DNA of 24,545 bases from a virus (IMGVR_UViG_2579778797_000010), one strand, 5' to 3'. Numbered from the stretch's first letter, positions 1 to 24,545 are shown. Made by a program: numbers and translations. The notes: generated from the letters alone by a model not told the origin.

Positions 1-3
1 GGT

Positions 4-486
4 TCAATATTCCAGACAGACTCGCGGTTCATTTAAGCATCCATGCCCGCCCTGAACTCCGGGCACACCGTAAGTAAAATCAGCCACCCACAGCTGGTCA
101 GGACGTTCTGCCACGAACTGACGGTTTACGCGGTCGCCTGCGGCAACGGCTTTCCGGCTGATGGTCGTACGGACCTTTTTACCCCGGAGAACACCGGCAA
201 GTCCCATAACCGCCATGAGACGTGCCACAGTGCATCTGGCCACTCTGATACCTTCCCGTAACAACTGACGCCAGACTTTACGCACACCGTATACCTGGTG
301 ATTTTCATCGTATACGCGCTGTATCTCTTTCTTCAGCCAGTCATCGCGCTGCGCACGGGCACTGCGTTTATCCGGATGATGTCGTTGTTGCTGACAGTGG
401 TAATACGTTGACGGGGCAATATGCAGTTCGCTGCATAGCGGTCCGACCCCGTACTGCTCACGCAGCTTATCCAGCAGTGGCATCAT
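4..486 (-). pseudogene. IS3-family transposase OrfB, truncated (only N-terminal ~139 codons are transposase-like)
   Basis: Translation matches the IS3-family OrfB N-terminus up to QLWVADFTY (first D of the DDE motif), then diverges and stops at 4-6. Confidence 0.8.
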
Positions 487-863
487 TTTTTCCAGAGGCG
501 GTCGAACTCCGCCTTCGCAAAATAAGCGGAAGCCTGGCGAAGGATATCGTTACTGCGGCGCAGTTCACGATTTTCACGTTCCAGCTCTTTCAGACGCTGA
601 CGTTCAGCGGTGGTGAGCCCGCCATCACCGCTTCCGGTATCCCGCTCATGCTGGCGTACCCAGACACGCAGAGTCTCCGGCGTACAGCCAATCTTTGGAG
701 CAATGGAACAAATTGTCGCCCATTGTGAGTCATATTCGCCCTGACTTTCCAGAACCATACGGACTGCCCGTTGACGGACTTCGGGGGAAAAACGAGTATT
801 TTTAGTCATCCTGTTTACCTCTTTCTCAGGGAGTTTAGTCTCCAGGATTCCCGGGGCGGTTCA
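70..863 (-). mobile_element. Partial IS3-family insertion sequence (IS629/IS1203-like), distal part missing
   Basis: Minus-strand terminal inverted repeat TGAACCGCCCCGGGAATCC ends at 863. orfA and orfB overlap at 483-486. orfB similarity stops just after the conserved ADFTY motif near nt 70. Confidence 0.75.
483..809 (-). CDS. IS3-family transposase OrfA (HTH and leucine-zipper part), IS629-like
   Basis: 108-aa [22 protein letters not shown]...[33 protein letters not shown] at 807-809. Ends in GGAAAAAATGATG, where the orfB ATG overlaps the stop (typical -1 frameshift window). Confidence 0.85.
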
Positions 864-1131
864 TATAGACAATCCATCCATCGATCAGACCAATGGTCTT
901 CCCTGTTCGCGCAGGACCAACAAAAATCACCGCATCGTATTCACGCGATGCCAGGCAGTTCATGGGCTCAATGATGTAGGGTGTCAGTTCAGGATCCCAT
1001 GGCACCGAGTTACCAGCCCCCTTGGGAACACGCATGAATTTTTTAACAGCCTCCGAAATCGGCATGCGACGTGGTGGGGAAAATCCTGCCGATATGTCCC
1101 TTCCCAAATTTCGGGCTGATGAAAAACCCAT
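864..1131 (-). pseudogene. Phage terminase large subunit (lambda gpA-like), N-terminal fragment cut by IS629-like insertion
   Basis: ORF starts 8 nt after the Nu1 stop; ~89 codons read MGFSSARNLGRD...ARTGKTIGLIDGWIVY before running into the IS inverted repeat at 863. Confidence 0.55.
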
Positions 1132-1139
1132 TATTCCTC

Positions 1140-1667
1140 CTAGAGACTCTCTCCTTCCTCATCAGGAATTAATTCAGCAGCACAAGCCTCGTAGGATTTT
1201 TCCTGAAGAGTGTATCGCAGGTCATCAATTGCCTGCTGTACAACGCCGACGGCCTGAGGAGTCAGGGCGCAATCGCGTTCAAGAACATCCGGAATTGTCT
1301 CCAGAACCTGGACGACAGCCTTTCTCATGGACGAATAGACGATGACTACTTCATCAACGGGGATGAGTTTTCGCTGCTCCTTTTCCAGCTTGATCCTTTC
1401 ATTTTCAGACTGGTACCAGTCCTTTCTCTCTTTCGGCTCCATACGGGATGGATCATGAACAGAGTCTGCTGCCTCATGCTTCACACTAAACAGGGCTGGC
1501 CCGACATGCTGCAGGGCGTAAACGGGGTTCCCCCTGACAGTCGCAGCCACAGGAGTGTTGGCCGCGAGAAGCCGTTTTTTTACTGTGTCCCGGTGAAGCC
1601 CAAAGGCCTCAGCGATTTTAAAAACACTCCAGTAATAAGCATCACCGATCCCGCTCACATTTGACAT
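1140..1667 (-). CDS. Phage terminase small subunit (lambda Nu1-like; K-12 Qin equivalent is nohA)
   Basis: N-terminal HTH region resembles lambda Nu1 (YYWSVFKIAEAFGLHRDTVKKRLLAANTPV). ATG at 1665-1667 has a GGAG 6-9 nt upstream; upstream ATGs at 1677-1679 and 1695-1697 lack an SD. Confidence 0.75.
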   Translation of the reverse strand: MSNVSGIGDAYYWSVFKIAEAFGLHRDTVKKRLLAANTPVAATVRGNPVYALQHVGPALFSVKHEAADSVHDPSRMEPKERKDWYQSENERIKLEKEQRKLIPVDEVVIVYSSMRKAVVQVLETIPDVLERDCALTPQAVGVVQQAIDDLRYTLQEKSYEACAAELIPDEEGESL

Positions 1668-1839
1668 AAGCAACTCCATCTGGCAGGTGAAAATCATGTT
1701 TATTTATATATTTCAATTAATTGTAAACTGATCTAATGACAGGGAGAAAAAAATATTGTACAGGTAAAAAGAGAAATAACTTTTAATTATCAATAAATTA
1801 CCAAACATGCTGCCGCCGCCATGGAAATGCAAAAACTAG

Positions 1840-1920
1840 CCTTTTTCCGCGACGCTCCCGCCCCGTGGCAGGGGCCCCCACCGGGAGGACCCGACAGCCT
1901 GACAGCCTGACAGCCGTGAC
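1840..1920 (-). other. Candidate cos site (cosN-like GC-rich core plus tandem octamers) upstream of Nu1
   Basis: Minus strand reads GGGGCGGGAGCGTCGCGGAAAAAGGC, resembling the lambda left end GGGCGGCGACCTCGCGGGTTTTCGC, about 180-200 bp upstream of the Nu1 start. GACAGCCT GACAGCCT GACAGCC lies at 1893-1915. Confidence 0.4.
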
Positions 1921-2051: not shown

Positions 2052-2219
2052 ATGCGAACCATAAATGCCTCATCTTCAGCAATGCAGCCGGCATCCGAAC
2101 AGGACGATATTGTAAATTCACCTAATTACGAGGACATTGCAGTAGTTGAATTGCAGCTCTGTATTAGCCTGACAGTGACAGAATGCGATATTGACTCTGT
2201 CACAGGTGAAATAGTTTGA
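2052..2219 (+). CDS. Hypothetical small acidic protein (55 aa)
   Basis: ATG at 2052 preceded by GAGGGG; hand-translated as MRTINASSSAMQPASEQDDIVNSPNYEDIAVVELQLCISLTVTECDIDSVTGEIV. Below the ORF-track size cutoff. Confidence 0.3.
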   Translation: MRTINASSSAMQPASEQDDIVNSPNYEDIAVVELQLCISLTVTECDIDSVTGEIV

Positions 2220-2239
2220 ATGATTAGCAGTTATGGTGC

Positions 2240-23676: not shown

Positions 23677-24545
23677 GTAAGCGTGCAGCAAGAACCGTAT
23701 TGACGGGGATGTGTTATTCAGTCGGCAGTGCTACGCGCCAGGGGAGCAGTTCGCCGACCCGGTTTATCGGCCAGTCGGCTATGACGTCAAGGACATAGCG
23801 GAGGTAGCTTTCTGGCTCCACTCCGTTCAGTTTGCACGTCCCGATCAGGCTGTACAGCAGCGCTCCCCGCTCTCCTCCATGATCCGAACCGAAGAACAGG
23901 TAGTTTTTGCGGCCCAGACTGACCATCCGCAACGCATTTTCAGCGATGTTATTGTCCGCCTCAGCCCAGCCATCATCTGCATAGTACGTCAGCGCCGGCC
24001 ACTGGTTCAGGGCGTATGCGAACGCTTTCGCCAGTTCTGAGTGTCGCGACAGGGTTTTCATCTTTTCACGCAGCCAGCTTTCCAGGGATTTCAGCAGCGG
24101 TTTCGTTTTCAACTGACGTTCGGCAAGGCGCTGCTCCGCCGTCATTCCCCTTATCTCTGCCTCGATGGCGTACAGTTCGCCGATCCGTTTCAGCGCTTCC
24201 TCCGTCAGGGCTGACGGGGTGCGAACGTGCACATCGTGGATTTTACGGCGGGCGTGAGCCCAACAGGCGGCTTCCGTTATCCGGCCATCCCGGTACAGCT
24301 CGTTGAACCCGGCGTATGCATCCGCCTGCAGTACACCACTGAACCCCGCAAGATGGGTCTGCGGATGGATGCCTTTTCTGTCCGGGCTGTAAGCGAACCA
24401 CATCGCCGGCGCCAGCGTTGACCCGGCGTTACGGTCGTCACGAACGTAGGTCCATAACCGCCCGGTCTTCGTTTTCTTATTGCCTGGCAACAGCACCGGG
24501 ACAGGCGTGTCATCAGCATGGAGCTTACCGTCAGTCAGCACATAG
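23677..24545 (-). mobile_element. IS66-family insertion sequence, one end (continues beyond window)
   Basis: Terminus GTAAGCG at 23677-23683 ~30 bp beyond the transposase stop; TnpC reading frame runs to the window edge. Confidence 0.7.
23714..24545 (-). CDS. IS66-family transposase TnpC, C-terminal part (partial, runs off window)
   Basis: 275+ codons with the IS66 C-terminal region ([18 protein letters not shown]...[12 protein letters not shown]...[55 protein letters not shown]). Confidence 0.85.

Follow-up and report, generated by a model that had tools for sequence, protein, structure and literature searches.

A lambdoid prophage sequence of 24,545 nt (the window, to whose full length all coordinates refer) carries a GC-rich block upstream of a pair of terminase genes, the second of which is interrupted by an insertion sequence. 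The locus raises the question whether this block is the cos of the prophage, as a preliminary description had proposed, and whether such a site could still be used for packaging. Judged by identity and similarity of sequence, position, pattern of conservation and coincidence with deposited genome ends, the segment from 1684 to 1892 (minus strand) is very probably the cos of a Qin/Tritos-like lambdoid prophage, organised as cosQ-cosN-spacer-cosB in the same way as in lambda. The positions of the nicks, the pairing of the protein with motifs in cosB and packaging by a helper are what we infer in addition. Numbers in bp are counted from bp 1, which is window position 1863, along the minus strand, which is the phage strand.

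Genomic position and the terminase genes

On the minus strand the phage genes run from lysozyme and Rz (5759-4732) through cold-shock and small moron genes to a ybcW-like ORF (2446-2240). This is followed by a non-coding gap of 570 bp, the small-terminase ORF of 175 aa (1667-1140), a large-terminase fragment (1131-864) and an IS element (863-1). The block precedes the small-terminase ATG at 1667 (bp 197) by 196 bp, in agreement with the distance of roughly 180-200 bp given previously for a lambda-like GC-rich block, and the sequence quoted for it is present. The order of the genes, small terminase (DUF1441/PHROG 141) before large terminase (GpA_ATPase), is the right one for a cos and counts in favour of this reading. 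To a longer ORF start at 1697 the distance is 166 bp. This longer start is specific to the window, in which position 1697 (bp 167) is an A, creating an extra upstream ATG, where Tritos and cdtI have a C; the ORF that is called mechanically (1140-1697) is 185 aa long, and the conserved start, the ATG at 1667, gives the 175 aa that are also found in RefSeq.

The window matches a Qin-like prophage of strain STEC409 with 99.9% identity from 864 to 23676, and 23677-24545 falls outside the match. Annotated under this match are an integrase, an exonuclease, an ISEsa1 transposase fragment and ydfU, and the flanking annotation in STEC409 includes relBE, hokD, cspB/cspF/cspI and gnsB.

The small terminase gene (1140-1667, minus strand) is intact, and Tritos, cdtI and HannyBb have small terminases with 100% identity to its product. 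This protein matched Pfam DUF1441 (E = 1.9e-44) and PHROG 141, 'terminase small subunit' (E = 7.9e-65). No match to Pfam Phage_Nu1 was obtained, and the protein, previously named Nu1, is therefore better described as a DUF1441 protein. Alignment of DUF1441 to Nu1 with hhalign gave a weak match (probability 26%, E = 7e-4) that was collinear and included the N-terminal HTH region. A search of solved structures with the small terminase yielded no significant match, and a single-sequence AlphaFold model (pLDDT 44.5) was too poor for a fold search. A relation between DUF1441 and Nu1 is weakly supported, and it is plausible that the small terminase works like Nu1.

The gpA-type large terminase is represented by a 5' fragment (864-1131, minus strand; Pfam GpA_ATPase) that comprises codons 1-89 of 699. 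Over these 89 aa it is 100% identical to the large terminases of cdtI and STEC409, and the identity to intact homologues stops at 864. The gene is interrupted here by the end of an IS3-family element (1-863, minus strand), confirming the earlier statement that the large terminase is cut by an IS. This element has orfA/orfB ORFs at 4-809 and a terminal sequence ...CCCGGGGCGGTTCA that ends at 863; under a match that includes it, RefSeq lists an 'IS3-like element IS1203 family transposase'.

The cosQ-cosN core and its relatives

Along the phage strand, the block reads GGCTGTCA GGCTGTCA GGCTGTCG GGTCCTCCCGGTGGGGGCCCCTGCCACG GGGCGGGAGCGT CGCGGAAAAAGGCTAGTTTTT, with the layout GGGTCCT-22 nt-CCACG/GGGCGGGAGCGT/CGCGG, in which slashes mark the predicted nicks. 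The minus strand from 1864 to 1847 is GGGGCGGGAGCGTCGCGG, where lambda bp 1-17 are GGGCGGCGACCTCGCGG; the lambda junction reads ACGGGTCCTTTCCGGTGATCCGACAGGTTACG/GGGCGGCGACCT/CGCGGGTTTT. By equivalence to lambda, cosN would occupy 1850-1865 (minus strand) and would be nicked between 1864 and 1863 on the phage top strand and between 1852 and 1851 on the bottom strand. The predicted product is a 12-nt 5' cohesive end, GGGCGGGAGCGT (window 1863-1852), with one CG dinucleotide on either side.

This cohesive end is identical to that of lambda, GGGCGGCGACCT, at 8 of the 12 positions. The left half, GGGCGG, is the same at 6/6 positions, and the mismatches, at positions 7, 8, 9 and 11 only, all fall within bp 7-12. 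The flanks of cosN, ACG and CGCGG, are those of lambda as well, so that both predicted nicks are bordered by CG. At 1886-1892 (minus strand) the heptamer GGGTCCT is identical to lambda bp 48473-48479, which we take to be the position of cosQ, the packaging-termination signal of lambda. From this heptamer to the predicted top-strand nick there are 22 nt in the window, unlike the 23 nt in lambda. Two-fold symmetry was found at 8/16 positions of cosN by our own count, versus the 10/16 rotationally symmetric positions reported for lambda (PMC9026076), and at 12/22 positions over 22 bp, versus 10/22 in lambda. In lambda-like phages, bp 7-12 of the cohesive end vary in nature and can be changed without loss of function, in contrast to the conserved left half and CG flanks and the highly conserved cosQ (Feiss 2015, PMC4669245).

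The chance level of this likeness was determined with a 20-mer composed of ACG, the lambda cohesive end and CGCGG. Searched against both strands of the whole window, it gave a single match at up to 6 mismatches, which was this site with 4 mismatches. None of 200 dinucleotide-preserving shuffles of the window contained a match with at most 4 mismatches, indicating together with the single match that the likeness to lambda cosN is beyond chance. This bears on a different explanation of the block, as a chance likeness, or as a terminator or other structured element that ends the lysis/moron region and is no packaging site. The block is indeed GC-rich, has short palindromes, for example GGGGCCCC, and lies in a long non-coding gap. 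However, a terminator scan detected no terminator-like site in 1500-2500, there was no Rfam match for the cos block, and its single-strand DNA fold was no better than that of shuffles (z = -0.12), so that no terminator, Rfam family or significant fold competes with a packaging site. As the predicted nick moreover coincides exactly with the termini of phage records, this explanation is effectively refuted.

These termini were found by megablast of the region against phage records. The records of Tritos (OV696610) and cdtI (AB285204) both begin with GGGCGGGAGCGT at window 1863, the lambda-equivalent nick, and the linear Tritos record ends with ...CTGCCACG at window 1864. The record ends are deposited termini, on the choice of which the Tritos paper (PMC9928086) is silent. 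Record termini at the predicted nick support a cos and argue against chance resemblance, and from these termini and the likeness to lambda we infer the virion ends of this type of cos. The record of mEp460_4F5 begins 5 nt ahead of the nick, but its cosN lacks 3 nt, probably through an assembly artefact, and it was not counted. In IMG/VR contigs carrying the core, nearly all matches were internal to prophage-derived contigs, which makes the contig ends uninformative on physical ends.

Tritos is a prophage of E. coli LF82 and a plaque-forming siphovirus that makes virions (PMC9928086). In addition to the small terminase, Tritos and cdtI have cosN and the spacer identical to those of the window, and the large-terminase fragment is 100% identical where overlapping. 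Over the 197-bp left arm, cosB differs from that of the window at 5 positions in Tritos and at 7 in cdtI. On the right arm Tritos differs at 0 of 120 bp, the whole arm including three octamers being common to both, whereas the right arm of cdtI upstream of cosQ is lambda-like, unrelated to that of the window and without octamers. The large-terminase genes of Tritos (2,034 bp) and cdtI (2,100 bp) are intact, in contrast to the broken gene of the window. In the intact STEC409 prophage the cos region is 100% identical over 601 bp, showing that the site itself is undecayed.

The sequence CTGCCACG/GGGCGGGAGCGT/CGCGGAAAAAGGCTAGTTTTT was invariant in seven E. coli phages and prophages, while both flanks varied. 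The 64-bp core of cosQ, cosN and spacer was present in 2,035 of the 5,426 complete E. coli genomes, with up to 7 copies per genome; among the matches listed, no annotated feature lay under it. In a sample from IMG/VR (104 usable loci carrying the 25-mer right of the nick), GGGTCCT started 29 nt before the nick in 97 loci, and several unrelated right arms converged exactly at this heptamer. Downstream of about bp 33, three classes of cosB (A, B and C) could be distinguished. Class A, to which the window belongs, always occurred with a small terminase 99-100% identical to that of the window, and classes B and C occurred with small terminases of about 42% identity or less. The cosB class was thus strictly tied to the small-terminase clade (perfect segregation), a co-variation that is confounded by linkage. 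By analogy, an invariant core with a clade-specific cosB mirrors the pattern of lambda and 21, which share cosN and have a specific cassette of cosB and small terminase. Termination requires cosQ, cosN and I2, and initiation requires the cognate small terminase and cosB (Feiss 2015, PMC4669245).

Outside this group, CCacG/GGG.../CGCGG was found 90-230 bp upstream of the small-terminase gene in 66 of 80 DUF1441 loci across Gammaproteobacteria. At the position of cosQ, the loci of Proteus, Providencia, Morganella, Yersinia and Pasteurellaceae have AAAGGTACTCC instead of GGGTCCT, and those of Marinobacter and others have GGGGACCCTG; these may be alternative termination signals. In a prophage of O157:H7 TW14359 (near locus 3145) and in 3 IMG/VR loci the heptamer is GGCTCCT, with cosN otherwise identical. 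Judging from cosQ mutants of lambda, the TW14359 prophage could be defective in the termination of packaging. In some phages with a DUF1441 terminase the distance from ACG to CGCGG is not 12 nt (about 11 in VT1-Sakai (Sp15), 10 in CP-1639 and 14 in Gifsy-2), which suggests different overhang lengths or shifted nicks. Finally, contig JAGZPX010000007.1, labelled as a Veillonella parvula MAG, has an unchanged cosQ-cosN core, a class A cosB with one difference over the bp 34-66 shown, and a small terminase 99% identical to that of the window. This contig almost certainly derives from an E. coli prophage and was mis-binned into a Veillonella MAG.

Two groups of named phages combine these components differently. 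Gifsy-1 of Salmonella, counted among the lambda-like cohesive-end phages (Feiss 2015, PMC4669245), has the same cosQ heptamer and the cohesive end GGGCGGCAGCGT, one base off that of the window at position 7 (the window is Gifsy-1 with C7G). Its small terminase is a true Nu1 of the phage 21 type, unlike the DUF1441 protein of the window, and its cosB has the arrangement of three R sites plus IHF (Feiss, PMC9026076). LLS, mEp213 and mEp043, with a DUF1441 small terminase and a gpA large terminase, have the same layout as the window, GGGTCCT-22 nt-CCACG/12 nt/CGCGG-GGCTAGTTTTT-triplet box. Their 12-mer is of the GGCGGGCGCGCT type, reading GGGCGGCGCGCT, unlike that of the window. In the LLS record a 12-nt '5'extended single-strand cohesive site GGGCGGCGCGCT' is given at the homologous position; according to the LLS paper, the ends of LLS were inferred from the large-terminase class and the putative cos of mEp213. 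The small terminase of LLS is about 41% identical to that of the window. In these three phages the box is (CAT)4, as opposed to (GGC)3 in the window, and cosB is shorter, with the small-terminase gene from bp 130. A literature search for the exact 12-mer GGGCGGGAGCGT returned one unrelated mammalian promoter paper and nothing else.

The proposal of a lambda-like cos upstream of the terminase genes is upheld by cosN and its flanks, the spacing of cosQ, position and orientation, the invariant core and the record termini at the nick. The alignment to the lambda cos goes well beyond shared GC-richness, and the core is kept in related prophages. It belongs with the lambda-type cos sites of the cdtI/Tritos group and is nothing out of the ordinary. 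The site is not new, since its core is already the point where two sequenced phage genomes begin or end.

The octamer array and the proposed organisation of cosB

Adjoining cosQ on its upstream side is a tandem octamer array at 1893-1920 (minus strand), GGCTGTCA GGCTGTCA GGCTGTCG. Tandem Repeats Finder reported a period of 8, the consensus GACAGCCT and 3.4 copies, of which two are perfect, one matches at 7/8 and one is partial. In the preliminary description the cohesive end was followed by 2.5 copies. The repeats are real, but their number was too low, and instead of standing between cosN and the terminase genes they precede cosQ, which puts them at the right end of the packaged chromosome. 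The window and Tritos have three copies each, HannyBb, mEp460_ev081, the O157 TW14359 prophage and PhiR40_1 have two, and cdtI and lambda lack the array. Among the 104 IMG/VR loci with the same cosN, strict octamers adjoining cosQ numbered 0 in 67 loci, 2 in 30 and 3 in 7. Because the copy number varies and the array is absent from cdtI, which has the same cosN and small terminase, the octamers appear dispensable and not a required element of cos. We regard them as a repeat prone to slippage that belongs to one version of the right arm.

A functional array (GGCTGTCA)n that binds protein as part of cos, for example as an accessory terminase or host-factor site, is improbable. It would fit the local enrichment of GGCTGTCR (5 matches in the window versus 0.95 expected, 3 of them in the array), the position directly next to cosQ, and a weak resemblance of the CTGTCA core to CCTGTCA and CTGTCAGCAGCAGGTG in the cosB of this terminase clade. 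Apart from the variation in copy number (3, 2 or 0 with the same cosN) and the absence from cdtI and lambda, the array is, however, common to prophages with 42%-identical small terminases and a different cosB, and therefore does not co-vary with terminase specificity.

On the other side of cosN, a conserved spacer at 1824-1849 (minus strand; approximately bp 15-40), reading ..CGGAAAAAGGCTAGTTTTTGCATTTC, separates cosN from cosB in the position of the lambda I2 segment. As far as about bp 33 it did not vary in any of the E. coli relatives, irrespective of their class of cosB, and GgCta.TTTT was conserved in 66 DUF1441 loci across Gammaproteobacteria. The general plan resembles that of lambda: the spacer is A/T-rich, an IHF consensus stands some 65-75 bp in, the small terminase starts about 190-197 bp from bp 1, and it is followed by a gpA-type large terminase.

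The spacer is followed by a triplet-repeat box, CATGGCGGCGGCAGCATG, at 1806-1823 (minus strand; bp 41-58), in the position of R3 in lambda and N15. R3 is located at bp 50-65 in lambda and at bp 48-60 in N15 (PMC9026076). At least three perfect trinucleotide repeats within bp 31-75 were found in 41 of the 66 DUF1441 cos sites, versus 3.3% of control 45-mers. Which unit is repeated (CAG, CAT, CAC or GGC) follows the N-terminal HTH sequence of the small terminase, a relation confounded by linkage. The box is a candidate for the primary binding site of the small terminase. In mEp460_ev081 (LR597641) a segment of cosB is present as a perfect 98-bp tandem duplication (bp 23-218 from the start of the cosN 12-mer), the duplicated unit covering the spacer, a CATCACCAC box and an IHF-like ATTGAT; other class C loci are single-copy.

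An IHF core consensus, TATCAATAAATTA, is located at 1788-1800 (plus strand; bp 64-76), a perfect match to WATCARNNNNTTR in the place of lambda I1. The AT-rich stretch at 1700-1840, where an IHF site had been expected, is real and holds this consensus. With 3 matches in the window versus 2.6 expected the consensus is not enriched, and the argument for IHF is one of position, not of count. All E. coli relatives had an ATTGAT core at this distance; among the 66 distant loci, TTGAT occurred in bp 60-95 in just 23.

The distal part of cosB (1684-1768, minus strand) contains direct repeats of the TTYACCTG and CCTGTCA types: TTTACCTG at 1761-1768 (bp 96-103), CCTGTCA at 1737-1743 and TTCACCTG at 1684-1691 (bp 173-180), all on the minus strand. 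In Tritos and cdtI, both viable phages, the first of these is TTCACCTG, with C where the window has T, which counts against the reading as a working cos. In the window there are 5 matches to TTYACCTG, versus 1.55 expected; 3 of these, each on the minus strand, are no more than 530 bp from cos and include a further copy 340 bp upstream of cosN besides those at bp 96-103 and bp 173-180. CACCTG at bp 173-175 was kept in 16 of 17 relatives with small terminases 53-99% identical, identified in a scan of 49,000-species genomes. In prophages of Proteus, Providencia, Morganella and Yersinia, copies of AGGTGACA and TGTCACCT were found in both orientations at about bp 98 and 121. The distal repeats are candidate accessory terminase sites, analogous to R2 and R1, or else candidate leader elements. 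Further upstream, the non-coding sequence from 2094 to 2238 (minus strand) is 87% identical to lambda 47946-48090 and is found in most lambdoid phages. It contains the motifs CTGTGACAGAG and TCTGTCACTGTCAGG and a third TTCACCTG where lambda has TAGTCTG, and gave no match in Rfam.

The R repeats bound by Nu1, which had been suggested as a check, did not turn up: a repeat search of 1660-1960 revealed no triad of R3, inverted R2 and R1 in the style of lambda (CGTTTCC type) and no direct-repeat family, only AT-rich inverted repeats. The assignment of cosB accordingly depends on position and co-variation alone.

It is possible, although we put it forward tentatively and would not count on it, that phages with a DUF1441 terminase have a third kind of cosB, unlike both the R3-I1-R2-R1 arrangement of lambda and 21 and the single R3 of N15. 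In the layout that we envisage, a short trinucleotide box at approximately bp 44-60, in the position of R3, would be followed by repeats of the GGTGACA/CACCTG type in both orientations. The proposed unit is (GGC)3AGC here and (CAG)3, (CAT)3-4 or (CAC)3 elsewhere. Each unit would correspond to the recognition helix of its small terminase and would thereby determine which prophages are packaged together where the cosQ-cosN core is otherwise identical; the window would be one instance. A literature search found no defined recognition site for the sizeable DUF1441 terminase family, and the layout of cosB that emerged from this comparative survey may be the sole new part of the site.

Possible packaging of a prophage with a broken large terminase

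In lytic growth, the DUF1441-type small terminase would bind cosB, probably at the GGC-triplet box (bp 41-58), with help from an IHF-induced bend at bp 64-76 and from the CACCTG-type repeats downstream. The bound protein would position a gpA-type large terminase on cosN, which would nick the top strand between 1864 and 1863 and the bottom strand between 1852 and 1851, leaving the 12-nt 5' overhang GGGCGGGAGCGT. Packaging would then proceed leftward in the window, taking in the small-terminase gene first, then the large-terminase gene and what follows it, and would stop when GGGTCCT (cosQ), cosN and the spacer of the next cos are recognised.

Since the large terminase is broken by the IS after codon 89, the site would be usable only with a compatible large terminase provided in trans. 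By analogy with Sp4 of O157 strain Sakai, the helper-mediated packaging that had been suggested for this prophage is plausible. Sp4, also lambdoid, has an IS-disrupted terminase gene and is still packaged, which was attributed to the co-resident prophage Sp14 with an identical cos (PMC2669165). The broken subunit is not the same, being the small one in Sp4, through ISEc8 (PMC2669165), and the large one in the window.

We consider it unlikely, but not negligibly so, that the site is a cos by descent and now an inert relic that is never cut, the large terminase being lost and no compatible one being co-resident. The loss itself, after codon 89 of 699, is in keeping with this, and the junction of IS and large terminase was found in none of the complete E. 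coli genomes of the collection. In lambda, the N-terminal region of gpA contacts the small subunit. The first 20 or so residues of the large terminase differ between the type of the window and a prophage of another cosB class, and the rest of the fragment is 75% identical between these two. Against a relic, the cos shows no decay, being as noted identical to that of the intact STEC409 prophage over 601 bp and near-identical to that of the viable Tritos, and the small terminase is intact. Compatible helpers should be common, given that a single E. coli genome can carry as many as 7 copies of the 64-bp core, and Sakai Sp4 was packaged in spite of its IS-disrupted terminase gene (PMC2669165).

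The practical value of recognising this cos is one of annotation: the site marks the packaging origin and the direction of packaging of a Qin/Tritos-like prophage. As termination needs only cosQ, cosN and the spacer (PMC4669245), co-resident prophages that share the core could terminate on each other's cos, and defective prophages with an intact cos could be mobilised, as for Sakai Sp4 (PMC2669165). The cosB classes and triplet boxes that travel with small-terminase clades provide a testable handle on packaging specificity.
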